Shown: positions 6,010-22,025 of the stretch, in pieces
Layout: every line of letters starts with the position of its first letter
How positions within the stretch are numbered: the first letter of the stretch is position 1
Origin: Prolixibacteraceae bacterium
GTDB lineage: Bacteria; Bacteroidota; Bacteroidia; Bacteroidales; Prolixibacteraceae
Reading direction: 5' to 3'
DNA: 64,000 nt
Assembly: GCA_030602265.1 (NCBI GenBank)
Contig: JAUWAB010000012.1
Coordinates: 5,923-69,922, forward strand
Notes under the pieces: generated by a model
Database searches by the model: none
Told to the model about the DNA's origin: nothing
What the model saw: the letters and a program-made list of their open reading frames with translations, nothing else
Translations under genes and position numbers: made by a program

Positions 6010-8238
6010 TTATCTGGTGTAAATCACTTTTCCGTGGTAAACCTTATCCTGAACGGTTACCTGATAAATCAGCATCTGGCTGGCCAATCCATGTGGTTTG
6101 AATTCAAACCGGTTATACACGCCGCCATCTAAATAACCTTCAAACAACTGACTGATCCTCAATCCCATAGAATTGTAAATCTCAACCTTAACCATGGCAC
6201 TTTCCGTCAGGCCAAACTCGATATTCAGTCTGTCGGTAAACGGATTCGGAAAAGCAAGCAGTTCGGTCTCCAGAAGTTCCATCCCTGCCTCAATCTCGGC
6301 AGATTTTTTCTTCAGTTTACGGACAGAAAGCGTGAACGAAACGGTTGTTGTCGCCGAATTTCCGGATGCATCATAAGCAGTTAACAAAATGGTTTCACTC
6401 GTAGCCTGATGATACGGGGTACCTGGCGCAGGCACCTGTTCATAATAGGCCACTCCACAGGCATCATTTGCCGGGAAAAGGGAGGACAGGTCAGGCAGCA
6501 GGTAGACCTCTCCCTCGGTAATGGTCACCTTGTGGCTTTTCTTACCCGCTCCAAACACCGGAGGCACCCCATCCACAACGACGATCAGCGTGGTACATGT
6601 AGCTGTCTCTCCATGCTGATCGGTCACCGTCAGGGTCACTTCCACCGGATTTCCAATATCACTGCAACTGAAGGAAGAAGGATGCGCCGAAATATTCAGC
6701 TGACTGAATGGGGTATGGTCATCTGTACTACCCTGGGCCAGCAGGGCCAGATCAGCCGAAGTAAGGGTATACAGTCCGGAAGAATTAAGCATAACACTTA
6801 GCTCATTACAAACCGCCACCGGCGGATTATTGACATTTCGGACGGTTACGACCACCATATCCGGAGCCGAATCAAGCGAACCATCGTTTACAACCAATAC
6901 AAATTCCAGAGGGGTATCTACATTAACCAATGGAGCTGTGAACTGCGGTACGGCAGAATTGGCAGCCTGAAGGTTGATTCCGGCGGGAGCTGTCCACTGA
7001 TAGGTAATCGAGTCACCATCAGGATCATAGGACCCTCGCCCGTCGAGCCGCACGGTTGCCCCTTCGTTCACCTCGAAATCATGACCTGCATGGGCAACAG
7101 GACGGCTATTCTCCCCGGAAGTCACTGTAATGATAACCTCATCGGCATCGCTCAATCCAAGGTTATCGGTAACCACTACCATAAAGGTAAGTACGGTTTC
7201 GGAAGTAACGGTTGGTGCAGTGAACCGGGGATCTGGTGCGAAGTAGTTATCCAGGACTATACCCTCGGGGGAAATCCATTCGAAAGAAAGCGGATATCCG
7301 TCGGGGTCTGTGGAAGCCGAGGCATCCAGGATTACCGTTTCTCCGGAGTTGACAAACTGAGGAGTGCCGGCATCGGCAACCGGAGGATTGTTCTCTATGA
7401 TTCCGTCGCAATTGTTATCCACCCCACTGCCCGGGACATCTGCAGCCCCCGGATGGCGGCCGGGATCAGCGTCGTCGCAATCCTCACCGTTGGCCACATA
7501 GCCCGTCGGACGGGTACACTGCCCCACCGAAAACTTCGGGTTGCCATAACCGTCGCCGTCCGCATCAAGATACCAGATTCTATAGTCAGGATGATCCGGA
7601 GAACAGGTATTTTGCGGGACAACCACCACCGAAGCTTCTATGCCTTCGGTCCCCACTTCGCCGTTAATCTCGACTTTTTTGACAAATATATTGCTTTCGA
7701 AGGTCAGGGTTAACGGTTTCTCAGGAATCTCAGGGGTATTCACCGTGAAATAGAAATTTTTATAGGGCACATTCTCGAACCTGAAATAACCGTTTGCATC
7801 TGTTTGGGTTGAACTGAACACTTCACCGGTTTCGACCAGGATCAGAAAGACATTGACGAATGCCAGCGGATTTCCCTGAAGCAATGCCTTAGCAGCTTTC
7901 AATACCAATGCATTCGTCTCCTGGTTCTCGTTTTCCGTAAGGTTCCCGGCGAGTTCAAAGGTAAATTCCACCGAACCACTGATCTCGTTCAGGATAATCC
8001 CGGCTGTAGCGATATAAGCATTGTTGGCATACAGATAAGTACCCTGCTGCCCCGCCGACACATATCCGGTATAATTTCCACCGGAAACCAGTCCGGCCCC
8101 GGCCGACACCGCGCTCTGGACATTCTCCTGCGCCCTGAGGGGGTACAGCAGGATACTGCAGAACAGCAGCACCCAAAGCCTCAGAGGAGGCGAGACATTC
8201 GCCGGCCTGATTCTTTTTATTATTTCAACTGAGATCAT
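6010..8238 (-). CDS. T9SS-sorted surface protein with a Cys/Asp metal-binding motif and PKD/Ig-like repeats.
   Basis: It has a signal peptide and the motif DADGDGYGNP...DCDDADPGRHPGAADVPGSGVDNNCDG. Two clear ~95-aa repeats carry D(A/G)S.S.DPDG-type motifs (DASASTDPDGYPLSFEW, DGRGSYDPDGDSITYQW), followed by further Ig-like sequence. The C-terminus FPNPFTDRLNIEF...VKVEIYNSMG is typical of type A T9SS sorting domains. Confidence 0.85.
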   Translation of the reverse strand: MISVEIIKRIRPANVSPPLRLWVLLFCSILLYPLRAQENVQSAVSAGAGLVSGGNYTGYVSAGQQGTYLYANNAYIATAGIILNEISGSVEFTFELAGNLTENENQETNALVLKAAKALLQGNPLAFVNVFLILVETGEVFSSTQTDANGYFRFENVPYKNFYFTVNTPEIPEKPLTLTFESNIFVKKVEINGEVGTEGIEASVVVVPQNTCSPDHPDYRIWYLDADGDGYGNPKFSVGQCTRPTGYVANGEDCDDADPGRHPGAADVPGSGVDNNCDGIIENNPPVADAGTPQFVNSGETVILDASASTDPDGYPLSFEWISPEGIVLDNYFAPDPRFTAPTVTSETVLTFMVVVTDNLGLSDADEVIITVTSGENSRPVAHAGHDFEVNEGATVRLDGRGSYDPDGDSITYQWTAPAGINLQAANSAVPQFTAPLVNVDTPLEFVLVVNDGSLDSAPDMVVVTVRNVNNPPVAVCNELSVMLNSSGLYTLTSADLALLAQGSTDDHTPFSQLNISAHPSSFSCSDIGNPVEVTLTVTDQHGETATCTTLIVVVDGVPPVFGAGKKSHKVTITEGEVYLLPDLSSLFPANDACGVAYYEQVPAPGTPYHQATSETILLTAYDASGNSATTTVSFTLSVRKLKKKSAEIEAGMELLETELLAFPNPFTDRLNIEFGLTESAMVKVEIYNSMGLRISQLFEGYLDGGVYNRFEFKPHGLASQMLIYQVTVQDKVYHGKVIYTR

Positions 8239-8244
8239 AATATC

Positions 8245-10734
8245 CTATTTTATGACGGTGGTTGAAACATTATCTGCAGACTGTACATCCCCGGAAGCAT
8301 CGATTTTTAACTGTACCAGACGGGCAAGCATTTCGATCTGGCTTTTCAGTTCGTTCATCTCCTTCTGGCTGGCCGACGACGCCACCAGCTCATCTTTCAG
8401 GAGCCTGTTCTCTTTTTCGAGGGCTTCCACTTTGTGGTTCAGCTCTTTAACTGCCTGAAGCAGGACCGCTGTAAAGCCATTGTAATTGACTGATTTAAAG
8501 CCATCGCTGCCGGTTTTCACCAGGGCAGGGAACTGGGCTTCCAGCTCCTGGGCAAGCAGGCCGATCTGCTGGTCGGCAGAGAAATTCTTTTCCGGGTATT
8601 CCTCTTGTTTCCAGAAATAGGAATATCCGCCGAGTGATTCGATTTTATTTAAAGTATTGCCGCTTAATGGCTGGATTTCTTTTTTGAGACGCTCATCGGA
8701 ATTGTAGCTGTTGGTTCCGGAGCCCTCGATATCACCATTGACCGTCAAAGTTCCGTTGACCTCAGCTCCTGTAACCATTTTAAACGGTCCGCTGCCATAC
8801 GTTCCGAAGCTCGTTAGGGTAGTTGTTTCACCGGTGCTGCTGACCAGGGTTAAAGTACCCCTTTCACTTTCTTCATCGGGCCAGGAAGACATATTTATTT
8901 TAACTTCGTTATCTTTTCCCAGCATTTCAAACCACGGAATATCTGCATCTTCCCAGGTTTTGCTGCCAATTGAAAAGTTGGTGGAGCTTGGGCCCCTTAA
9001 TTCAAAATGCCCTGAACTACCCCCTTCTCCTACTGTTGTTTGCATGTAAACCCGGCTCTGTCCGCTTGCATCATCAAGCGCCACATGAGGGTTAGTTCCG
9101 CTCAAAACAAGCCGGCCCGTTTCACCATCGGCACCAACCAGCCCCAGGTTTATTCTTTCCGTATTGGATTTATCGAAAAATCCTGCCTGGGCATGGGAAC
9201 CGTGGAGCGTTAGCATACCAAAATCACCATTTCCCCAGTCCTGTGTGCTAAGGACGCCTGTTCTTTTAAACGGTTCAGGAGAATTGGCCCCAAAAATTTC
9301 CATCATCCCCTGCAGGAGGGAGCTGTTGTAATTGGTACTGCGTAATGTTAATCCCCTCTGCCAGGTGGCGTTCGACAGTGCTAATCCATCGGGACCAATT
9401 ACGGCACGATTTTCATCCTGGCTGGTCAGCGTAATATAACCTGCGTTGATCCTTGAGCTGACGCCATCTTTGGAAAACAGGTTAAAATAGCCGTTCTCAT
9501 GAATATCGTTCGAGGCTGACATTTCCGCAATCACATTATTTTCTGTTCCCTTCATCACAAAGTAGGGAAGATTGGGATTCTCCTGGCTTTTATTGCCTAA
9601 ATAGATATTCTCAGATTCCGGACCATTCAGGTAGAGGTTACCTGCATTGCCATTACCATTCATTTCGGCACTGTGCTGATTTTCGGGTGTAATTAAAAAA
9701 ATCCCTCGCTGATCTACCAGGGTTCTGGTATTATCCTCTCCAGACAGCGTGATGTTTCCTCCGTGAGAATTGTCACCCTCATTCGTACCTTTAACCAACA
9801 CATATTCCTTCCAATCAGGGCCGTTAACCGAAAAATGATGGGGTGTAATGCTCGACTTGTTGCCATAGGAGTCCTGAAGTATGATCACACCTCTTTCTTT
9901 TTCTTCGCCATTCCCCTGATACTTTGCTCCTGTCAGTTCAATAATCTGATTACTTGTTGAACCGAGCATATTTATCCTTGGCATATCGGGATTCTCCCAA
10001 TGGCGGCTCCCGATTTCAAAATTGGTACTGTTGGGCCCCCTGAGTAAAATGGTGCCCGAGTAACCCAGATTGCCCCAGTTCTGAGACATCATCTGTGCAT
10101 TAAAAACACTCCCGTTCCTGAACCAGAGACCTTCGGATCCAAAGCCGCTCATAGGCTGATTGTTATGCGAAACACCAAAGCCACCGGGATTGAGCACCAT
10201 ACGGGTCCCGCCGTTTGAGGTAATACTCATGTAGCCATCCTCGACAGTGGAACCCGAGACTTCATAATTGTTTATCCCCATAGACACCCGCTGGCTGTTG
10301 GCTTCGGGCGTTAATCCGAATAAACCGACGAAAGGCAAATCACGGTTTTGCGATAACAAGGTTGCATATAGGCGAGAACTCCCGGCACCCCTGGAGTCTA
10401 TCCCAACAGAAGGTGAGGGAATGGGTTTGTACAATGTAACCGGAGACAACGCTACATTACCAACGGAAATCTCCATCTGCCGTTCATCGGTTCCGTCGAA
10501 GATATTGCCCGGAATAGGATTGGTGCTTCCCAGTACAATAAAATAGAGACCATCTGTTATGGCTACTTCATTGTGCGTTTCACTCCACTCCAACGCTGGA
10601 ATTGAAACGGTTATCGCCCGGGTTCCATTGACAGGAACCCCTTCCTCTATTAATTTTCCCTGAAAAGGGAGCTTTTGTCCCTGCACTGAAAGTGCCAGCA
10701 AGAATAACACAGAAAGTAAATAAAATTTTCTCAT
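8245..10734 (-). CDS. Secreted tail-fibre-like repeat protein with a C-terminal peptidase S74 / intramolecular chaperone domain.
   Basis: It has a signal peptide (LLALSVQGQ) and internal repeats (LRGPNSTNFEIGSRHWENPDMP, LNGPESENIYLGNKSQENPNLP, LRGPSSTNFSIGSKTWEDADIP). The C-terminal stretch SDERLKKEIQPLSGNTLNKIESLGGYSYFWK...GLLAQELEAQFPALV...NYNGFTAVLLQAVKELN is followed by a coiled coil. The gene lies 6 nt upstream of the T9SS gene. Confidence 0.8.
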   Translation of the reverse strand: MRKFYLLSVLFLLALSVQGQKLPFQGKLIEEGVPVNGTRAITVSIPALEWSETHNEVAITDGLYFIVLGSTNPIPGNIFDGTDERQMEISVGNVALSPVTLYKPIPSPSVGIDSRGAGSSRLYATLLSQNRDLPFVGLFGLTPEANSQRVSMGINNYEVSGSTVEDGYMSITSNGGTRMVLNPGGFGVSHNNQPMSGFGSEGLWFRNGSVFNAQMMSQNWGNLGYSGTILLRGPNSTNFEIGSRHWENPDMPRINMLGSTSNQIIELTGAKYQGNGEEKERGVIILQDSYGNKSSITPHHFSVNGPDWKEYVLVKGTNEGDNSHGGNITLSGEDNTRTLVDQRGIFLITPENQHSAEMNGNGNAGNLYLNGPESENIYLGNKSQENPNLPYFVMKGTENNVIAEMSASNDIHENGYFNLFSKDGVSSRINAGYITLTSQDENRAVIGPDGLALSNATWQRGLTLRSTNYNSSLLQGMMEIFGANSPEPFKRTGVLSTQDWGNGDFGMLTLHGSHAQAGFFDKSNTERINLGLVGADGETGRLVLSGTNPHVALDDASGQSRVYMQTTVGEGGSSGHFELRGPSSTNFSIGSKTWEDADIPWFEMLGKDNEVKINMSSWPDEESERGTLTLVSSTGETTTLTSFGTYGSGPFKMVTGAEVNGTLTVNGDIEGSGTNSYNSDERLKKEIQPLSGNTLNKIESLGGYSYFWKQEEYPEKNFSADQQIGLLAQELEAQFPALVKTGSDGFKSVNYNGFTAVLLQAVKELNHKVEALEKENRLLKDELVASSASQKEMNELKSQIEMLARLVQLKIDASGDVQSADNVSTTVIK

Positions 10735-13772: not shown

Positions 13773-15929
13773 TCAGCTTTTATTGCTCTCCTGATAGTGA
13801 TAAATATTTCCGGATTCGGGTACCGGCCGCTCCCCGATAATATACAGGGCATCTGCAGCTTCAGCCAGGTGGGGCCTGTGGGTAATCAGCATGATGGCCA
13901 TCTCCCCTTTCAGTTTCCGGAGCAACTCAATGACAAATGTTTCTGTACGTTGGTCCATAGCCGCAGTTGCCTCATCAAGCAGTAAAAGCCTCGGCTTCCT
14001 GTACAATGCCCTGGCGAGGGCAATGAGCTGGCGTTGTCCGCCCGACAGGTTGCCGCTGCATTCACTGACCAGGGTGGCATAACCCTGCGGCAGTTCCTGA
14101 ATGAATTCATGAAATCCCAATTGTTTGCAGAACAAAATCACCTTATCCTGATCCGCCTCTTCACCAATGGCAATATTTTCCAGGATGGTAGCATTGAAAA
14201 GGCTGACATGCTGTGGCACCCAGCCGACCAGACTCCGCCATTCCTTCGTATGAATTATGCTCCAGTCAAGACCGTTAAGGGTAATCGAACCTTTTTCAGG
14301 CTGATGAAACCTCAGCAGGATATCAAACAGGGTGCTTTTCCCACTTCCCACCGCTCCGGAAATGGCCAGAATCCTGCCTGTCGCTGCTTCCAGGTTAATG
14401 TTATGGAGCAGAAGGCGCTTCCCGGGGAATCTGAAACAAAGACCTTTTACCGACAGTCTGAAATCAACTTCCCGACTGAGCTCCATGGGAACGAATGGCT
14501 GGGCAGGATCATATTCAGGATCGACCGATGAAAACTCAAACATCCTGTCAAAGGCAATTCTGGCCTCCTGGAACTGTATGGCCGCCATGGCGATCCCGAT
14601 GGCAGATGTACCCAATGATCCGGCAATGGTAATGATGGCCATCATCTGGCCGATCATCATCTTTCCCTCAAAAACCTGCCAGGTTACCCATGCAATAACC
14701 ATAACCATCCATACTGAACTGCCAAGAGAAGTCCAGAAACTAAACCTTGCCGTGACCAGTCCAAGCTGGTAAACACATTGCATATAGGCACCATAAACGG
14801 CTTTGGCAATCCGTGAAAACAGATTTTCATTATTAAATGATTTAATGGCCTTAATGCCCTGCAAGGTATCGATGAACCTGCTTTCAGAGGATGCATAAGA
14901 TTGCATGACCTCCCGTTGCGATTGGATGATCTTCTGGTTGTAAAACCAGGTAACCACTCCAAAAACCGGGATAACCATTAGGCTGATCAGGCCGGTGGTG
15001 ACGGAAACGACAGCAATGTATACCCATGAGGTGATGACAATCAGCAGATCGATGACCACCTGGCTGCTCAGGGCTACCACTACCCTTTGTATACGCTGTG
15101 TATCGTTGAGACGGGCGATCAGGTCACCGGTAGTGGTACTGTCGAAGAAAGGTTTCGGAAGGGTAAGGAGTTTACCGAAGAAAACGTCCGTTATCCGGAT
15201 ATTCATATCTTTAGCTGTCCGGATGAGGAAGGCAGTCCGGATATACGACACAACCGCCCTGGCCACCAGGACCAGGCATAAGATGGCCAGTCCGGGCACA
15301 AGTTTGTCATGGTATCTTCCGGGGATAAACTCATCCAACAGTTTTTGGGTGAAGATGGCAGTGGCAAGCCCCAGCACGGAGATGACAAGCCCAATCACAG
15401 CAGCAATGGCCAGTACCGGGAGGTCAGGCCTGATCAGCCCCATAAACCATTCACGCTTTCGCTTCGCTTCAGCCTTGCTGGTTTTGAATTCAGGACCCGG
15501 GACCAACTTCAGAAGGGCTTTACTTTTCCATAAGTCATCCAGCTCACTTTCAGGAATTTTCACTACACCCCGGGCCGGATCGCCAATGAGGAATTTTCCG
15601 CCGGAAAAACCGTAGCACACTACAAAATGCTCCAGTCCTTCGGGTGTTACGGTATGCAGGATCACGGGCTCGTTTAATTCCTTCAGGTTGCCGGGTCCCC
15701 CCTCATAGCCACCCGCATCGAATCCCAGGCTGCGGGCAGCCTGACAAAGGCCCAGCATACTGGTACCATTAAGGGTGGTGCCGCTCATCGACTGCAGTTT
15801 CTGCTGGCTGACAGATCCGCCATGATAACGGATAATGGAAGCCAGACAGGCGAGTCCACAATAGAAGCGGCTGTGCTGACGGACAAAAGTTTTCCTGATT
15901 TTTTTTGATTCGAGCCTGGTTTTCGACAT
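13773..15929 (-). CDS. C39-peptidase-domain ABC exporter (double-glycine bacteriocin cleavage/export).
   Basis: The N-terminal papain-like domain carries QHSRFYCGLACL (Gln/Cys), EHFVVC (His) and IGDPARG (Asp). It is followed by a six-helix exporter TMD, Walker A GAVGSGKST, signature LSGGQRQ and Walker B LLLLDEAT. I take the ATG at 15929 (MSKTRLESKK) as the start. Confidence 0.95.
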   Translation of the reverse strand: MSKTRLESKKIRKTFVRQHSRFYCGLACLASIIRYHGGSVSQQKLQSMSGTTLNGTSMLGLCQAARSLGFDAGGYEGGPGNLKELNEPVILHTVTPEGLEHFVVCYGFSGGKFLIGDPARGVVKIPESELDDLWKSKALLKLVPGPEFKTSKAEAKRKREWFMGLIRPDLPVLAIAAVIGLVISVLGLATAIFTQKLLDEFIPGRYHDKLVPGLAILCLVLVARAVVSYIRTAFLIRTAKDMNIRITDVFFGKLLTLPKPFFDSTTTGDLIARLNDTQRIQRVVVALSSQVVIDLLIVITSWVYIAVVSVTTGLISLMVIPVFGVVTWFYNQKIIQSQREVMQSYASSESRFIDTLQGIKAIKSFNNENLFSRIAKAVYGAYMQCVYQLGLVTARFSFWTSLGSSVWMVMVIAWVTWQVFEGKMMIGQMMAIITIAGSLGTSAIGIAMAAIQFQEARIAFDRMFEFSSVDPEYDPAQPFVPMELSREVDFRLSVKGLCFRFPGKRLLLHNINLEAATGRILAISGAVGSGKSTLFDILLRFHQPEKGSITLNGLDWSIIHTKEWRSLVGWVPQHVSLFNATILENIAIGEEADQDKVILFCKQLGFHEFIQELPQGYATLVSECSGNLSGGQRQLIALARALYRKPRLLLLDEATAAMDQRTETFVIELLRKLKGEMAIMLITHRPHLAEAADALYIIGERPVPESGNIYHYQESNKS

Positions 15930-15993
15930 AATTAACGGGGGTTTAAGGGTTAACAAAATGAGGCTGATGACCAATTTGGGGAGTGAAAACGTT

Positions 15994-16202: not shown

Positions 16203-16775
16203 TCAAGGGTTTGAGGGGTTATTTATTTCAGATTCGGAAGGTATTTCTGCTGACTTCCTCATCAGCAGATTCAGGATATTCTCGGGATGAGTCTCACCCA
16301 AAAAATGTCCGGCTAATTTTTGGTCAGTTCCATAAATGTATACGGAAGGCAGGATTGCCCTTCCGAAAGTTTCCCTGAAGGTCTTATGTTGGTCTAACAG
16401 GAACTGAATATTATCGATCTCGTGCAAATGATACTCGTTAACAAACTGTTCCACACGCTGAAAGGAATCATCGGGGGTTACCATGACCACCTGAATCCCG
16501 GCAAACTCAGCAGCATAGGAAGCCATATAGCCTGCCCCGGACCGGCAATAGTCACATTCAGGATGAAAATACTTAACAATCATTGGCCGGGAGTGATCAA
16601 AACTCCTGAGATTAACCGGATCGCCATACAAGGAAGGGAAGGAGACATCGGGAATGGTCTGAATGCGGATTTCCGCGTTCCGCCGCGCGGCATACCCCTT
16701 CATTACCTTAATGGATAAATATGCGGCACAAGTCAGCACAAGCAATCCAATAATGAGTTTTCTAATTCCGTACAT
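16203..16775 (-). CDS. Membrane-anchored thioredoxin-fold thiol-disulfide oxidoreductase (TlpA/redoxin-like).
   Basis: It has an N-terminal TM segment (LIIGLLVLTCAAYLSI) and a thioredoxin-like domain with the CxxC motif in KYFHPECDYCRS. Confidence 0.8.
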   Translation of the reverse strand: MYGIRKLIIGLLVLTCAAYLSIKVMKGYAARRNAEIRIQTIPDVSFPSLYGDPVNLRSFDHSRPMIVKYFHPECDYCRSGAGYMASYAAEFAGIQVVMVTPDDSFQRVEQFVNEYHLHEIDNIQFLLDQHKTFRETFGRAILPSVYIYGTDQKLAGHFLGETHPENILNLLMRKSAEIPSESEINNPSNP

Positions 16776-16780
16776 GGCAC

Positions 16781-17425
16781 TCAGTTTAGACTCAGGTTAA
16801 TAAACAATACCACAAGAACCCAGAGGAGGAGGCCACTGCCATAGGAAATACCGGTCAGCCGGAACGCCTTTCCGAAGCTCAGGGGCCTTTCAGAGGATTC
16901 CTGGTTTACAAGATCCCGGATCAACCAGGCCAGCACAAGAAAATAGCCCAGTTCGAAAAGATTCAGCAGGCTCAGCGGGTAGACCAACAAGGTGTCGAAA
17001 GATTCCCCGGGGAAGAACTCCAAAACCGATAAAGGCTGAAACTGAAGGTCGTGAAGGGTGCTTACCTCCCTGAAAAAAATAAGGATGATCAGTTTAGCGA
17101 GGGCAGAGAGAACGAATACAAAATCAGCCAGCAAGGCAATTTTGAAGATCCGGCTAAACCGGGCAGGCAGATCAGCAAAAAACAATCCGGTGTATAAACA
17201 AATCGCTGTAAAAGAAACACGGAACAAAACAAACACCGGGAAAGATGCATAGCCAACCCACCTCATTTTTTGTGATGTTTCAATAATCCTTTCAATCTGG
17301 GAATGCGATACCTGCTCCTCGAAGGAAGAATAAAAAATATGGTCTCCAAAATATAAATATTGCATGGAGGACTGAATCAATGTATAAAAGAATACAATAA
17401 TGAGGAATAGTTTATAGGTTTTCAA
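16781..17425 (-). CDS. Polytopic membrane protein (about 5 TM), family not recognised.
   Basis: 214-aa hydrophobic ORF. It starts at a TTG whose product begins with a TM-like MKTYKLFLIIVFFYTLIQ. The next ATG would be at 17365. It lies 5 nt upstream of the thioredoxin gene. Confidence 0.55.
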   Translation of the reverse strand: MKTYKLFLIIVFFYTLIQSSMQYLYFGDHIFYSSFEEQVSHSQIERIIETSQKMRWVGYASFPVFVLFRVSFTAICLYTGLFFADLPARFSRIFKIALLADFVFVLSALAKLIILIFFREVSTLHDLQFQPLSVLEFFPGESFDTLLVYPLSLLNLFELGYFLVLAWLIRDLVNQESSERPLSFGKAFRLTGISYGSGLLLWVLVVLFINLSLN

Positions 17426-17451
17426 TTGATTTGGGGATTTTTAGATTGCTA

Positions 17452-17700
17452 TTACTTTTTCAGGTACAATTCCTTAAACCACTTTACCTGGCCATATCCA
17501 AGAAATAACTTCCATCGGTCATTCCTTTTGATAACACCTTTCCTGATAAGCCTTCCGCCATCCAGGAGCGGTCGGTACACAAAAGCAAATACCAGGAGCG
17601 AAATGAAAAACCAGCGGTTTAAGCCCAAATATAGAAGCGTGATCATCAGAAATAAGGGCAATACAATTGCCAATAAATAATATGTAATCAGATTTTTCAT
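17452..17700 (-). CDS. Small 2-TM membrane protein with a basic tail (immunity-like).
   Basis: 82-aa ORF with an ATG start. It has two hydrophobic helices followed by a Lys/Arg-rich C-terminus. Confidence 0.5.
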   Translation of the reverse strand: MKNLITYYLLAIVLPLFLMITLLYLGLNRWFFISLLVFAFVYRPLLDGGRLIRKGVIKRNDRWKLFLGYGQVKWFKELYLKK

Positions 17701-17743
17701 AAGAATAACGTTATTTATTTTTAATGGCTTAGCGTGTAAATGG

Positions 17744-17914
17744 TCACTTATTCTTCTTTAACTTAAATTGTAGCCAGGTCAGCAATGCCAGAATGGTAAA
17801 GTTGATTCCTATGATCAATTGAAACCACTCATACTTTAACTGGACAAATCTTATGAAGAAAAATACAGCAGCGATAAGTTCAAGGGTGCTTATTATCAGT
17901 ATTACTTTTTTCAT
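17744..17914 (-). CDS. Small 2-TM membrane protein, 56 aa (below the ORF-track cutoff).
   Basis: My own translation is MKKVILIISTLELIAAVFFFIRFVQLKYEWFQLIIGINFTILALLTWLQFKLKKNK followed by a stop. It has the same size, topology and basic tail as its neighbours and fills the otherwise empty 17701-17957 gap. Confidence 0.45.
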   Translation of the reverse strand: MKKVILIISTLELIAAVFFFIRFVQLKYEWFQLIIGINFTILALLTWLQFKLKKNK

Positions 17915-17957
17915 AAACTAGATCATAGTAAAAAGCGAATTCAATAATAACATGGTA

Positions 17958-18143
17958 TCATGAGCCATTTATATTGTTTCTCCTTATCCGGATTGCCCTT
18001 AGGAAAAACATTACGGAACATACTATAATAAGAAATGCCATAAGCCACTCATGGTATAGTACTTTGAAATCCAGAAAATAAAGAATGGAAAGAGCTGCCA
18101 TGGCAAGCAATAAGAAATTAAAAATCATGTTAAATGTTCTCAT
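17958..18143 (-). CDS. Small 2-TM membrane protein (immunity-like).
   Basis: 61-aa ORF with an ATG start. It has two hydrophobic helices and the basic tail RAIRIRRNNINGS. Confidence 0.5.
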   Translation of the reverse strand: MRTFNMIFNFLLLAMAALSILYFLDFKVLYHEWLMAFLIIVCSVMFFLRAIRIRRNNINGS

Positions 18144-18180
18144 AATTAAACTTCTTTACAGTTTTCTATTGCACTGATAT

Positions 18181-18387
18181 TCAATTATTATCCTTTCTTT
18201 TAATGGTACAGGACCGTGATTTCCTGTTTTTGCGAAATAAGAATAAGACAACCGAAGAGATCAATAAAATTCCCAGAATCGATATCACCAATGCGTATGA
18301 CAATGATACGTTTAATAATCTGGGGATAAAAACAAGCATCATGAAAACACCGGCTACGACATGAAATACTGCGATTAAGTTCTTCAT
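18181..18387 (-). CDS. Small 2-TM membrane protein (immunity-like).
   Basis: I take the ATG at 18387 (MKNLIAVFHVVAGVF...) as the start. The track start at 18399 is a GTG. It has two helices and the basic tail FRKNRKSRSCTIKRKDNN. Confidence 0.5.
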   Translation of the reverse strand: MKNLIAVFHVVAGVFMMLVFIPRLLNVSLSYALVISILGILLISSVVLFLFRKNRKSRSCTIKRKDNN

Positions 18388-18482
18388 TTCTTTACTCACA
18401 ATTTAATTTCAATAAAAGCAAGATATTACAGCACCCGCCAACACCTTAAACGAACCACTATAAAACAATACCCATTCTGCAT

Positions 18483-18914
18483 TCATTTCAGGTCTTCCTC
18501 AATTTTAACACCATTTTCCAGAAAATAATCCAGTACATTCCCTTCAAGGTTATCCTCTTTTAATTTCAGACGAACTTTTGAATCCCCGTAAAAGATCCAT
18601 AAAATGAGAAAATTCTTCTTCTTCATATACTTAATCTGGCGTATATCTGACAGTGGAATTTTTTCAGGATACTTATTCCAAAAGAGATGCAAAATAAGAT
18701 AAGCTATCCAGACCAGCGCCATGACGATCCATAAAACAGTCCTTATCTGGTCTTTTAATGAGTCACCCCAAAGCAAATTTACTACTATCAATAACAGAAT
18801 GGCAATAGAAAACAGCCTCCTTTCTCTCCTGAATATGTCAGTGAAATTGAAGAACTGCAAATCATTCTGGTCAGCGACGATTACGCCGTTATTTACTGTT
18901 TTAAATATCCTCAT
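18483..18914 (-). CDS. Membrane protein with a central 2-TM hairpin and soluble flanks, unknown function.
   Basis: The ATG at 18914 gives MRIFKTVNNG. The track start at 18986 is a TTG that overlaps the ABC ATPase gene. The central helices are LFSIAILLLIVVNLLW and VLWIVMALVWIAYLILHLF. Confidence 0.5.
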   Translation of the reverse strand: MRIFKTVNNGVIVADQNDLQFFNFTDIFRRERRLFSIAILLLIVVNLLWGDSLKDQIRTVLWIVMALVWIAYLILHLFWNKYPEKIPLSDIRQIKYMKKKNFLILWIFYGDSKVRLKLKEDNLEGNVLDYFLENGVKIEEDLK

Positions 18915-18975
18915 ATATTTGGGTTTTTTAAAGTGTATGCCACAAAATAATCCTTCATGTATAGATTTAATCGCT

Positions 18976-19695
18976 TTAACTTTCAATATTGAAGTATGTT
19001 TTCAATCGGGATAGCGACTCTGGACTATTCTGAAAATCATCCATGATTCTGCCCGACTCAAAGAGGATCACCCTGCTGCAAATCTGTGAAACAAACTGAA
19101 GATTGTGACTAGAAATAATAATGGTCGCTTTCTGTTTTACAACAGATTCACGAAGGATTCGAACCAGATCGTGTTGTGATGCAGGATCGAGAAAATTAAA
19201 TGGTTCATCCAGAATGATCAGTTCTGTCTTAAAAAGAACTGCACCCAAAATACCCAACTTGTGCTTGTTCCCATCCGAAAGGCTCCTGATAAGCTTACTC
19301 TCTCGTATGATATTAAATGTAACAAACTGCCTCATTCTGTCCAGGCACTCCTCAATAGCCGCTAAAGACAAGCCTCTCATCTGACCCAGCAGACGAATAT
19401 ACTCGCCGGGGGTCAAATAATCAATCAGGAAACTTTCATCGATATAGGCTCCGGTCTTATGTTTCCAGTGATCGGATCGGTGAACATTTTTACCCCTAAA
19501 AAAAACACTACCACTATCTGGAAGTAATAAATCAAGAAGTAATTTCAGAAAAGTAGTTTTACCCGATCCATTGTTACCAACGATACCGATTAACTCATTA
19601 CTGAAGATATCCAGATTCATCTGATCTATGGCAGGAATTCTTCCGTATCTCTTGTTCAGGTTTTTTATTGAAATGAAAGGATCACTTGCACTCAT
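18976..19695 (-). CDS. ABC transporter ATP-binding protein.
   Basis: It carries Walker A GIVGNNGSGKTT, a signature-like LSDGNKHKLG and Walker B LIILDEPF. Its start overlaps the stop of the upstream membrane-protein gene in an ATGA (19692-19695). Confidence 0.93.
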   Translation of the reverse strand: MSASDPFISIKNLNKRYGRIPAIDQMNLDIFSNELIGIVGNNGSGKTTFLKLLLDLLLPDSGSVFFRGKNVHRSDHWKHKTGAYIDESFLIDYLTPGEYIRLLGQMRGLSLAAIEECLDRMRQFVTFNIIRESKLIRSLSDGNKHKLGILGAVLFKTELIILDEPFNFLDPASQHDLVRILRESVVKQKATIIISSHNLQFVSQICSRVILFESGRIMDDFQNSPESLSRLKTYFNIES

Positions 19696-21119
19696 GAGTA
19701 ACTTTGCATTTTTTCGTATTTAACTGAATTATAGACCAAACTAAGAAAACCTTTGATGTATATGCGGTTCAGACCAAATAACACCAATCCGGTAGCCATG
19801 ATCAGATAATCAACATAAGACCGACTGACCATATGACTCACCATGATTAATATTCCTACCGGCAAAACACTTATCAGGACCAAACATACCATTTGAAGAA
19901 CATTACTACCCTGCGCATTGGCAAAAGAATTTCTGGACAAATCCATCCTTTGGGAGAATTGAATCCCAACCAATAATATCAAAGGATTACAGACCCCCAA
20001 AACCATGGAAACATTGCCCAGAAATCGGATCAAATCAGGTATGTTTTCCGCCAGCACAGGTATGCAAACAGAGGAGCAGACCAGGGTAAACAGGGTGAGC
20101 AACCAATATTTAGCCGATATATACCCGGTAATACTTGTCTCCGAAGCATGCAAGAACGGGTAAATACCCATATCTATTGAGAAAAGATGATAACCTATTG
20201 AAAAAGCGGCTGCACCGTTCAGGCATGTCAGGAAGTAATAAGTAATTAAAGATTGATTATCACTTGTTTTAACTATTAATACCCATGAAAGAATGATCAC
20301 CAGCATAGTTGAAAAAAGCATGGAACGGGGCCTGGAATTTCTTACGATTGATTTATAAATCAACAACGTATAAGGAAGATACAACTCAAGGGATTTGTTT
20401 TTGCCTTGACGGGTTTCAATTGTAAAATTGGATTCCGGGTGGAAATAACGGTAAAGGTATGCCCTTACTACAACCAAATCCAATACGATGACAGAAGATA
20501 TTAACAAAATCAGCATACCGGAATTCCCTTCAGACATTCCGGACATAAATGACCAGCCTGGAATACTCAGTGATATGATTCCCCAAAATATCAGCATGAA
20601 AATTATGGAGATTACCATTGCAGCAGAACGGTGAACCATAAGCTTTGCAATTACGGCAACATAATCCAATAACAATACCAATAATATCCAGGAGAAATAA
20701 TCCAGCAACATAAGACCACCACTCTGTTCACCCACCAGAAGAGGAATAATCATGAGTATCCAAATCAGGTTAAAATGGTTAACAACTGATTTCCAATGTA
20801 CAAACCGGATGATGGTTTCTTTCTGAAGTGGTAAAACATTGAATGGCGGTATTACCGGATTAGTTATTGTCCTGAATAATATTCTCAATCCAAGATCCAG
20901 AGCAAATAAGGTAAGCCAATACTTGTTGATCAATTCCCGGACTAACCCGCCTAAAGCCAGTGGTCCGGAATTATTGTCTAAGAACAAAAACACGTAATAC
21001 ATGGCCTGCAGGTATATAAATGCGACTACCAGGAATTTGGGCAATGTATTCGTGTAAAAGCTTTGATCTCTGTAAACGGCAAGAATGTTCAACCGTGTCA
21101 ATATCAGAATTTTACTCAT
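19692..21119 (-). CDS. Polytopic membrane protein, probable permease partner of the adjacent ABC ATPase.
   Basis: 475-aa ORF that is very hydrophobic throughout (10 or more predicted helices by eye). It is translationally coupled to the ATPase. I did not recognise the family with confidence. It may be a DUF-type ABC-2-like permease. Confidence 0.65.
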   Translation of the reverse strand: MSKILILTRLNILAVYRDQSFYTNTLPKFLVVAFIYLQAMYYVFLFLDNNSGPLALGGLVRELINKYWLTLFALDLGLRILFRTITNPVIPPFNVLPLQKETIIRFVHWKSVVNHFNLIWILMIIPLLVGEQSGGLMLLDYFSWILLVLLLDYVAVIAKLMVHRSAAMVISIIFMLIFWGIISLSIPGWSFMSGMSEGNSGMLILLISSVIVLDLVVVRAYLYRYFHPESNFTIETRQGKNKSLELYLPYTLLIYKSIVRNSRPRSMLFSTMLVIILSWVLIVKTSDNQSLITYYFLTCLNGAAAFSIGYHLFSIDMGIYPFLHASETSITGYISAKYWLLTLFTLVCSSVCIPVLAENIPDLIRFLGNVSMVLGVCNPLILLVGIQFSQRMDLSRNSFANAQGSNVLQMVCLVLISVLPVGILIMVSHMVSRSYVDYLIMATGLVLFGLNRIYIKGFLSLVYNSVKYEKMQSYS

Positions 21120-21144: not shown

Positions 21145-21173
21145 GGGGATGGTTGTTTGCGACAACCATCCCC
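21145..21173 (-). promoter_or_regulatory. Perfect 12-bp stem-loop immediately downstream of the bacteriocin precursor gene.
   Basis: The sequence is GGGGATGGTTGT-ttgcg-ACAACCATCCCC. It lies about 15 nt after the precursor stop and about 25 nt before the next start codon. No U-tract follows on the transcribed strand. Confidence 0.55.
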
Positions 21174-21188
21174 GAATCACGCTATCCA

Positions 21189-21371
21189 CTAATCCAACAG
21201 CAAATAACACCCCAACATGGTTAAACCGCCCACAATGGGATTTAATCCGGATGCTATACCGGCAGCAATTGCATAAGCAGCGCATCCGCCATGCTGTGAC
21301 CAGCTGTGGTTGCTTGTCCACCAGCCACCACCATACATATTTTCCATGGTCTCAATAGACAGTGTTTTCAT
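21189..21371 (-). CDS. Double-glycine-leader class II bacteriocin precursor (cerein 7B/lactobin A-like core).
   Basis: The translation is MKTLSIETMENMYGG|GWWTSNHSWSQHGGCAAYAIAAGIASGLNPIVGGLTMLGCYLLLD. The leader has L(-12), M(-7), M(-4) and GG. The core is Gly/Ala-rich with two Cys. The gene heads a same-strand cluster that ends in a C39 ABC exporter. Confidence 0.8.
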   Translation of the reverse strand: MKTLSIETMENMYGGGWWTSNHSWSQHGGCAAYAIAAGIASGLNPIVGGLTMLGCYLLLD

Positions 21372-22025
21372 TTAATTAAGATTTGAGGTTATCCAGCCAC
21401 CACCCTGCCAACCCTCCCCCGGCCTATCGGGGAGATCAGCTGTTCCCACAGTCGGGCCATTGAAATACACGCCGGCTGACGGCAAAATATCTCAAAAACC
21501 TTCTAACTTCGCACCGGGCTTCATACGAAGCCTTCGCCTCCCCGGGCCGGGAACAAAATCGCAGCGTGAACCCCGGGGAGGCTCTTACACGAACTTATTC
21601 TTTCCAATAAATACCAGATTTCTCATCATATTTCAGTTCAGGGGTCATCCATTGTTAACCGGGGGTTACCAGTTTTTCAACAGTATAATTCTACAAGGAT
21701 AATAAATATTTTGTTTATGTGCAATACTCAGGTGCTCCAGGGGTCAACTTTTTTTATAAAGCTTATAATAAACTGAATAACAGGTGTTTAAATAGTTAAT
21801 CTTCAACCAGCATGAGTCTTCTACCTATCACCGGATTTCCTTTCGCCGTCGTTCTGCCGGAATGTACCTAAACCCGAATATTCACCTTCAAAGTACAGGC
21901 CTGCTGCCAGAACAAACCAGATTCTCTACCCTGATTATCGCCGGAAGGATCCCATGTGGTCAGATCTAAGGTATTAACTGTGGACCAATCCAAGGACAGG
22001 GTCTGATGCACCCCCAGCCAATTTC

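Follow-up and report, generated by a model that had tools for sequence, protein, structure and literature searches.

A double-glycine peptide gene of a Prolixibacteraceae bacterium: a candidate disulfide-stapled bacteriocin with a bacteroidetocin-type cluster and a conserved upstream element

The Peptide Gene and Its Product

The subject of this analysis is a small peptide gene, together with the surrounding cluster and the element upstream of it, in a stretch of 64 kb (hereafter, the window) of contig JAUWAB010000012.1 of a Prolixibacteraceae bacterium. The gene lies on the minus strand (21189..21371, read from 21371 to 21189), and is an open reading frame (ORF) of 183 nt, with an ATG start and a TAG stop, which encodes a precursor of 60 amino acids (aa), composed of the leader MKTLSIETMENMYGG and the core GWWTSNHSWSQHGGCAAYAIAAGIASGLNPIVGGLTMLGCYLLLD. 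This translation is an exact match to that given in a first-pass annotation of the same DNA, and its description of the gene as a bacteriocin-type precursor with a double-glycine (GG) leader is supported.

The leader (21327..21371, minus strand; 15 aa) has a consensus that is kept throughout the family, with cleavage predicted after G15. Direct indexing places L at −12, M at −7, M at −4, and G at both −2 and −1, as had been claimed, and S at −11. The predicted mature core (21192..21326, minus strand) has 45 aa, with exactly two Cys residues and the small-xxx-small motifs AIAAG, AAGIA, AGIAS, and GIASG, likewise in agreement with the initial description. Its computed monoisotopic mass is 4631.219 Da in the reduced state and 4629.203 Da in the oxidised state, with a computed charge of −1 and a grand average of hydropathy (GRAVY) of +0.51.

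The window was compared with related loci, which are referred to by number (L001, L008, and so on). For the precursor gene, the ratio of nonsynonymous to synonymous substitution rates (dN/dS) is 0.18 when the window is compared with L001, and 0.08 when L001 is compared with L008, and the cluster is syntenic in L001, a diverged relative with the same flanking genes. Homologues of the precursor were recovered down to E = 1e-26, on a scale on which the identical sequence scores 1e-33, and an index of public assemblies has the identical protein in 83 blocks, the NCBI metagenome-assembled genome GCA_049322635.1 (‘Bacteroidota bacterium’) among them. The dN/dS ratios, the synteny, and the homologues rule out a spurious ORF, and the precursor is a real, conserved gene under purifying selection.

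The Peptide Family and Its Predicted Structure

Searches of the precursor and the core against Pfam and NCBIfam at E ≤ 10 returned nothing useful. A word-indexed search of 5.8 billion clusters recovered nine proteins of the peptide family, and a profile search of 1.84 billion representative proteins produced 32 matches at E ≤ 1e-3. The alignment provides the signature x-G-C-x4-G-L-A-A-G-I-A-S-G-x-N-P-x-V-G-G-L-T-T-x-G-C-x-L-L, in which the Cys pair is near-invariant, with a spacing of exactly 25 residues in most members. The GWW N-terminus of the window peptide is not general in the family, and Trp-rich N-termini are recurrent.

The family signature, the Cys spacing, and the AlphaFold2 model of the precursor, which was based on the alignment of nine sequences, all point to a core with a predicted helix–Asn-Pro turn–helix fold. 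The model has helices at residues 22–40 and 45–59, separated by a turn at S41–N44, with P45 as the start of the second helix, and its predicted local distance difference test (pLDDT) score is 83–85 over residues 31–50. Given that C30 and C55 (C15 and C40 of the core) are equidistant from the turn in this model, a disulfide between them would staple an antiparallel helical hairpin. A Foldseek search of the model against the PDB returned zero matches.

The Export and Maturation Genes

The genes of the cluster are all found on the minus strand, and their order on the 3′ side of the peptide gene is a gene of the DUF5687 family, an ATP-binding cassette (ABC) ATPase, a 167-aa protein, four small ORFs, a protein with five transmembrane (TM) segments (5-TM), a thiol oxidoreductase, and a C39-ABC exporter.

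The exporter (13773..15974, minus strand; 733 aa) is a C39-peptidase ABC transporter, with the domains Peptidase_C39 (4e-28), ABC_membrane, and ABC_tran, and it matches TIGR01193 at 8e-103, below the cutoff of 523.85 bits. The Gln/Cys active-site motif of the C39 domain is present in the window (QHSRFYCGLAC), and is kept in all 50 of the homologues. The oxidoreductase (16203..16775, minus strand; 190 aa) has a thioredoxin fold, with the motif CDYC, an AhpC-TSA/Redoxin match at E = 5e-10, a ResA-like character, and an N-terminal TM anchor. Its CxxC motif is found in 56 of the 56 homologous genes, and this conservation, together with the near-invariant Cys pair of the peptides, bears out the proposal that the two Cys residues and the clustered CxxC oxidoreductase belong together, with the disulfide itself as a prediction.

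The 5-TM protein (16781..17425, minus strand; 214 aa) has 188 homologues at E ≤ 0.001, and corresponds to the ‘5-TM protein’ of the bacteroidetocin loci. It has no Pfam, NCBIfam, or PDB fold match, and Foldseek returned only noise (E ≥ 4). A role as a DsbB/VKOR-like re-oxidase was considered, and is ruled out because the protein has no conserved Cys. No HlyD or TolC gene is found in the cluster or within ±10 kb.

A Bacteroidetocin-Type Platform in the Bacteroidota

Four gene types make up the bacteroidetocin loci, which encode the GG-leader peptide itself, the 5-TM protein, the thiol oxidoreductase, and the C39-ABC exporter (Coyne et al. 2019, PMC6671954), and these are all required, and are jointly sufficient, for the production of the toxin in E. 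coli (PMC6671954). The cleavage of the leader at the GG site has been demonstrated, and a shift in gel mobility on reduction is consistent with the presence of disulfides (PMC6671954). Nineteen such peptides have been reported, in four classes of Bacteroidetes (PMC6671954).

The comparison with the bacteroidetocins is made by published description and gene content, rather than by peptide sequence. On this basis, the window peptide shares with them a Bacteroidota producer, a leader of 15 aa (15–16 in the bacteroidetocins), a core of 45 aa (42–53), and two Cys residues (at least two), while the 5-TM, oxidoreductase, and C39-ABC genes are found in the same relative order, in a cluster with neither HlyD nor TolC. 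The differences are in the hydrophobic nature of the core, which has two Cys rather than four, and in the seven genes (DUF5687, the ABC ATPase, the 167-aa gene, and the four small TM ORFs) that separate the peptide gene from that of the 5-TM protein. Bacteroidetocins A and B are water-soluble, with charges of +6 and +2, respectively, and target BamA in the Bacteroidales (PMC6671954; PMC8546649, Matano et al. 2021).

A pattern scan of the GTDB species representatives recovered 56 loci with a 5-TM gene, in 53 of which the oxidoreductase gene adjoins it, with a C39-ABC gene also present in 50. These loci are found in the Prolixibacteraceae (Draconibacterium, Mariniphaga, Maribellus, and Tangfeifania) and the Cytophagales (Runella, Spirosoma, Fibrella, Flectobacillus, Arcicella, and Thermoflexibacter), and there are a few others. 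The scan recovered no loci in Bacteroides, Prevotella, or Elizabethkingia, which may reflect either divergence or the limits of the pattern. A match on a Phocaeicola plasmid was rejected as a bacteroidetocin locus, given its different architecture, with HlyD and C39-ABC. Nearly all of the 5-TM loci are preceded by one to three GG peptides, which share a near-identical leader, MKELSFEKMEEVNGG, and have hypervariable, hydrophobic cores, mostly with two Cys. The conservation of this module across loci identifies the window peptide as one subfamily on a common Bacteroidota platform. The first-pass annotation had treated a peptide of Gram-positive type, alone in a Bacteroidota genome, as an anomaly, and this view is overturned by the published bacteroidetocin architecture (PMC6671954) and by the 56 GTDB loci. 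The peptide family is new within a known kind of Bacteroidota system, and not a misplaced Gram-positive toxin.

The class II microcins, such as microcin V/colicin V, are a further point of reference, in that they too are made by Gram-negative bacteria, have a double-glycine leader of 15 aa that is cut by a C39-ABC exporter, and are Gly/Ala-rich, non-cationic, and unmodified peptides with a disulfide (cleavage and disulfide here predicted). The microcin systems, however, include an HlyD-type adaptor and TolC, whereas the leader and exporter are found here with neither, and they have a single small immunity protein, with no similarity in the sequence of the core. The MccV family (PF17508) matches 2 of the 35 relatives of the window peptide weakly. 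Peptides of the bacteroidetocin type are not recovered by the published microcin pipelines (PMC12219008).

The Comparison with Cerein 7B

The proposed affinity with the lactobin A/cerein 7B family drew on the mature N-terminus of cerein 7B, given as GWWNSWGKC. This start is correct, and the cerein 7B sequence used here, which has it directly after the leader, is 100% identical to a Bacillus protein named ‘lactobin A/cerein 7B family’. The assignment to this family, by contrast, does not survive. Neither the window precursor nor its core matches TIGR03949 or PF10439 (Bacteriocin_IIc; ‘Blp family class II bacteriocin’), even at E ≤ 10. Among the 35 relatives, TIGR03949 matches 17 weakly, only one of which (P0035, 27.5 bits) exceeds the curated cutoff of 21.5 bits, and PF10439 matches 20 weakly, but when the leader is removed, none of the 29 cores matches TIGR03949. 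A BLASTP comparison of the window core with that of cerein 7B found nothing at E ≤ 100, and the hhalign comparison based on the core profile has a probability of 9.4%, over seven columns (VGGLT). The full-length profiles align with a probability of 95.4%, over only 19 columns, which are the leader plus GWWTS/GWWNS. Given these profile, BLASTP, and hhalign results, the detectable similarity to cerein 7B does not extend beyond the export signal and the first five residues after the cleavage site. The claim of a homologous mature N-terminus thus holds for the alignment of the leader and these five residues (GWWTS here, GWWNS in cerein 7B), and not for the body of the core, where no similarity is found.

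The likeness in architecture is broader. Like cerein 7B, the window peptide has this type of leader, a Trp-rich N-terminus, two (here predicted) helices joined by a loop with Pro, motifs of the small-xxx-small/GxxxG kind, and one Cys near either end of the hairpin. The Cys–Cys loop has 24 residues here, in comparison with 46 in cerein 7B, and the peptide comes from a Gram-negative bacterium whose cluster adds a dedicated oxidoreductase and the 5-TM protein as a partner. An AlphaFold model reported for cerein 7B consists of two helices and a Pro loop (PMC10295673), and alanine scanning has shown that it cannot do without its Trp and Lys residues, either of its Cys, or its two GxxxG motifs (PMC10295673). 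The architectural features sought in the window peptide, that is, the double-glycine leader, two Cys, a Pro-linked helical hairpin, GxxxG-type motifs, and a Trp anchor, are all found in its sequence and predicted model. The window peptide has a cerein 7B-like architecture, outside that family, and by analogy it plausibly works like cerein 7B.

The window has a single peptide gene, as first noted, given that a six-frame motif scan and a tblastn search with the second peptides of the relatives turned up no second double-glycine ORF anywhere in the 64 kb, and the class IIb arrangement of two adjacent double-glycine genes in one operon does not occur within it. The lack of a partner had been presented as an anomaly, but cerein 7B is active alone (PMC10295673), and the second peptides of the relatives are separate cassettes, so that a single peptide gene is unremarkable. 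In L001 and L002, the cores of the second GG peptides are unrelated to those of the first, and the genes are not adjacent; that of L001 is 4 kb from the first, behind its own copy of the upstream element.

This second peptide of L001 (L001:14104-14304) has the leader MKELSFENMEGINGG and a core that begins GCNDRNDAIAANALCGVFF, and is found with the duplicate upstream element and an ORF of 147 aa. The counterpart of this site in the window (17426..18482) contains only small TM ORFs, two of which are absent from L001, and the region is a swappable cassette zone. On a marine metagenome contig (L005:2147-4362), five GG peptides, all different, come after a C39-ABC gene, and one of them is of the present family. 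Four of the five are directly followed by a small hydrophobic TM ORF, while the fifth runs to the end of the contig. This locus is a multi-bacteriocin array that resembles the streptococcal blp loci, with the classic toxin/immunity layout.

Given these comparisons, it is improbable that the peptide is a true Gram-positive ‘class IIb’ homologue of the lactobin A/cerein 7B type, acquired horizontally, with its partner elsewhere in the genome. The 95% hhalign probability of the leader plus GWWTS, the weak family matches of the relatives, and the second double-glycine peptides of the related loci would favour such an origin, but the alignment ends five residues into the core, the window peptide and the leaderless cores are negative, and the second peptides are unrelated and non-adjacent. 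Double-glycine leaders of this type are common to unrelated classes of peptide. The cluster is, moreover, syntenic, and embedded in machinery that is found throughout the Bacteroidota.

The Putative Immunity Genes

The gene directly downstream of the peptide gene (19692..21119, minus strand) encodes a polytopic membrane protein of 475 aa with at least nine TM segments, which belongs to DUF5687 (PF18940, E = 6.9e-38), and is a putative self-protection ABC permease. It overlaps by 4 nt the gene of an ABC ATPase (18976..19695, minus strand; 239 aa; PF00005, E = 2e-22), for which the best similarity in NCBIfam is the lantibiotic-protection ABC ATPase TIGR03740, below the cutoff. The DUF5687 gene directly follows the peptide gene in all four of the subfamily loci with downstream sequence (the window, L001, L008, and L074), with the ABC ATPase gene next wherever the sequence reaches that far, and a DUF5687 gene follows a different peptide in L032. 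A literature search on DUF5687 found no papers.

The next gene (18483..18986, minus strand) encodes a two-TM protein of 167 aa (143 aa according to the gene callers), which is 83% identical in L001 and has weak relatives in L038 and L040. Beyond this are four small membrane ORFs on the minus strand, each a candidate for immunity, of 72 aa (18181..18399), 61 aa (17958..18143; L001 91%, L008 47%), and 56 aa (17744..17914), with two predicted TM segments each, and of 82 aa (17452..17700; L001 85%, L008 51%), with one. The region 17452..18399 has a GC content of 33.9%, in comparison with 47.5% for the window, and is variable between relatives. The self-protection roles of the DUF5687/ABC pair and the small TM ORFs are proposed here because of this gene linkage.

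The identity between the window and L001 varies among the genes of the cluster, at 58% for the 5-TM protein and 54% for DUF5687, with 84% for the ABC ATPase, 83% for the 167-aa protein, 82% for the C39-ABC exporter, and 74% for the oxidoreductase. The stronger divergence of the 5-TM and DUF5687 proteins may reflect co-evolution with the peptide.

The Upstream Element and the Post-Stop Hairpin

A conserved leader or promoter element is located immediately upstream of the peptide gene (21372..21640, minus strand), with its covariance-model core at 21480..21597. Among the window, L001, and L008, conservation is higher in the approximately 230 nt that precede the start codon than in the coding region of the peptide. 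Searches by blastn and nhmmer found copies of the element in L001 (two), L008, L011, L014 (two), L018 (two), L020, L023, and L042, at a distance of 150–280 nt before each of the GG-peptide genes, including those at L001:9732-10000, L001:13833-14103, and L008:1655-1926. The element is also present in L031. Across 737 kb of loci, the covariance model recovered 14 copies, each of which is on the coding strand, a short distance before a GG-peptide gene. In a subset of the Prolixibacteraceae, every double-glycine peptide gene is preceded by this structured, unannotated element of approximately 120–230 nt.

The structure of the element is centred on a GC-rich hairpin, P1 (GCCTCCCCGGG / CCCGGGGAGGC), in which 21572-21582 pairs with 21536-21546. 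In L011, a compensatory change (C→U with G→A) keeps this stem paired, and in L038 and L040 the stem is wholly exchanged (GGCCGCACCGG / CCGGTGCGGCC). The P1 loop segment GTTCCCGG (21547-21554) is complementary to the conserved downstream segment CCGGGAAC (GGGAACA at 21441-21447). A second segment of the element can pair either locally or with a downstream copy, and both options are kept across the subtypes, in the form of GTTTTG with AAAAC or CAAAAC, and of GCTTCG with GAAGC or CGAAG. In the 25 copies of the majority type, P1, the long-range P2, and P4 are 92.6% paired, in comparison with 37–59% in the slid controls, and five base pairs have both partners changed, a number that none of 500 shuffles reached. 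A known RNA family was rejected for the element, given that the 4227 Rfam covariance models produced only chance-level matches (E ≥ 0.13), below the gathering scores.

The exact 21-nt motif of the element has 50 copies in metagenomes, 14 of which precede GG peptides, so that specificity for bacteriocin genes is also rejected. Inspection by eye places the other copies mostly before small Cys-rich signal-peptide proteins or putative lipoproteins, with a few that have no clear ORF. These metagenome copies indicate that the element is regulatory and common to a larger group of genes for secreted proteins, on which it would act either as RNA or as a DNA operator.

In six of the metagenome loci (L067, L076, L081, L084, L096, and L100), the same element precedes signal-peptide proteins of approximately 65–78 aa, with four or five Cys (CGDGTG...), which are usually followed by a protein of approximately 265–280 aa. 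In a plasmid of Flammeovirga pectinis (L114:9337-10465), a 5-TM/redoxin/ABC module is followed by an ORF of 51 aa, a GLPGLI family protein, and a LanC-like gene. The CGDGTG and Flammeovirga loci may represent another secreted-peptide system under shared regulation. In L042, the sequence that follows the copy of the element (L042:6780-6960) contains, by eye, the GG-leader-like stretch KELSFEKMEKTT, with ATA in place of the ATG start, and this may be a decayed peptide gene.

A hairpin of 12 bp is found directly after the stop codon of the peptide (21145..21173, minus strand; fold z-score −3.6). Post-stop hairpins of 11–12 bp are also present in L001 (~10198-10227, z −2.9) and L008 (~2131-2158, z −3.8), with entirely different sequences, so that the hairpin is conserved by compensation. 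This hairpin is probably a partial terminator, or a stabiliser of the mRNA, between the peptide and the downstream genes, and probably sets the ratio of peptide to immunity expression.

Interpretation and Alternative Readings

Taken together, the leader, the predicted hairpin, and the cluster suggest that the product of this gene is probably the precursor of an unmodified (class II-like) one-peptide bacteriocin from an environmental member of the Bacteroidota, a disulfide-stapled helical hairpin with a bacteroidetocin-type cluster and a putative immunity module. The nearest relatives of the cluster are from the Prolixibacteraceae. The small secreted product is most likely a toxin that acts on bacteria as a single peptide.

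Transcription would begin behind the conserved, structured leader element, and the post-stop hairpin would lead to more peptide than downstream transcript. The C39 domain, in view of its intact catalytic residues and the domain content of the exporter, would recognise the 15-aa leader, cut it after Gly-Gly, and export the 45-aa core across the inner membrane. The membrane-anchored CxxC oxidoreductase would close the C15–C40 disulfide, as suggested by the Cys spacing, the AlphaFold2 model, and precedent. The disulfide would staple the helix–Asn-Pro turn–helix hairpin, with small-xxx-small packing motifs on its faces, while the Trp-rich N-terminal segment may act as an interfacial anchor, and the hydrophobic hairpin would attack the envelope or membrane of related bacteria. 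The 5-TM protein would be an obligatory partner, as in the bacteroidetocin clusters, and the producer may be protected by the DUF5687/ABC-ATPase transporter and the small two-TM proteins, to which the peptide gene is linked.

A number of points weigh against this interpretation. The AlphaFold2 model is of moderate confidence only, with a mean pLDDT of 66, and gene linkage is the one line of evidence for the putative immunity roles of the DUF5687/ABC pair and the small ORFs. The anionic to neutral core differs in charge from bacteroidetocins A and B and from most class II bacteriocins, and the putative immunity genes have no counterpart in the bacteroidetocin A/B loci, the producers of which have no immunity whatsoever. 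In addition, the cluster has no outer-membrane export component, and the peptide gene is 3.8 kb from the 5-TM gene, rather than adjacent to it.

That the product is a secreted signalling peptide, that is, a pheromone like ComC or BlpC, which would use the same C39-ABC exporter, is a slimmer prospect than the class IIb origin. Double-glycine leaders and C39-ABC exporters serve pheromones too, the leader has a weak similarity to that of ComC (E = 2.1), and the conserved upstream regulatory element suggests coordinated control. A core of 45 aa that is very hydrophobic, with a predicted disulfide staple and membrane-type motifs, is nevertheless unlike the known pheromones, and no histidine kinase or response regulator is found within ±10 kb of the peptide gene. 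The linkage of the peptide gene to genes for small TM proteins and for an ABC transporter with a putative protective role also argues for a toxin, as do the hypervariable cores at the same position in the related loci, which would be expected of toxins.

Slimmest of all is the prospect that the 45-mer is not the final product, and that it is either modified further, as a ribosomally synthesised and post-translationally modified peptide (RiPP), or retained as a small membrane protein by the envelope of the producer, given that the weak matches of the relatives to TIGR04149 (Bacteroidota peptides modified by radical S-adenosylmethionine (rSAM) enzymes; 5 of 35, leader part) and to the lichenicidin A2 family lantibiotic model TIGR03893 (3 of 35) fall on the leader region, and no rSAM, LanM/LanC, YcaO, or other modifying enzyme is found in the cluster or within ±10 kb, which leaves the thiol oxidoreductase as the only maturation enzyme, although the GRAVY of 0.51 would be enough for the peptide to stay in membranes.

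A more far-reaching proposal builds on the bacteriocin interpretation, and is doubtful, albeit conceivable. The upstream element, with its mutually exclusive pairings, would be an undescribed cis-regulatory RNA, either riboswitch-like or the target of antitermination, and the regulon that it defines in the Prolixibacteraceae would consist of secreted peptides for antagonism and of further small proteins that are secreted. The peptides would represent a new toxin class, in the form of non-cationic helical hairpins stapled by a disulfide, with DUF5687 as part of a dedicated ABC transporter for immunity, and they would not depend on BamA, the target of the bacteroidetocins, to kill Gram-negative Bacteroidota. 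The rest of the window was scanned for a dedicated regulator of the cluster, either an adjoining kinase/response regulator or a NusG-like protein, and none was found.

Other Genes of the Window

Two further observations concern genes at a distance from the cluster. The segment 8245..10734 (minus strand) encodes a secreted protein of 829 aa that ends in a Peptidase_S74 domain (E = 6e-16), the ‘chaperone of endosialidase’, an intramolecular chaperone that is typical of the tail-spike or fibre proteins of phages. Its context here is chromosomal, and it adjoins a PKD-domain protein (6010..8238) with a weak match to Por_Secre_tail, the sorting domain of the type IX secretion system. The segment 699..4577 (minus strand) encodes a hybrid two-component protein of 1292 aa, with a Reg_prop/Y_Y_Y sensor, HisKA, HATPase, a receiver, and an AraC helix-turn-helix domain, which is of a type typical of the regulation of polysaccharide utilisation in the Bacteroidota, with no evident tie to the peptide cluster.

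Implications for the Bacteroidota

Bacteroidetocin-type machinery is not limited to the gut Bacteroidales, but is widespread in environmental Prolixibacteraceae and Cytophagales, where the platform exports hypervariable, hydrophobic peptides, mostly with two Cys. The 45-mer hairpin with its one-disulfide staple provides a testable structural hypothesis for an unannotated peptide family, and peptides of this kind are candidates for use as narrow-spectrum agents, with Gram-negative Bacteroidota as the target. The link with DUF5687, if true, would be the first functional assignment of this family, as a bacteriocin-protection ABC permease, and the shared upstream element represents an unannotated candidate for a regulatory handle on the genes of interbacterial competition.

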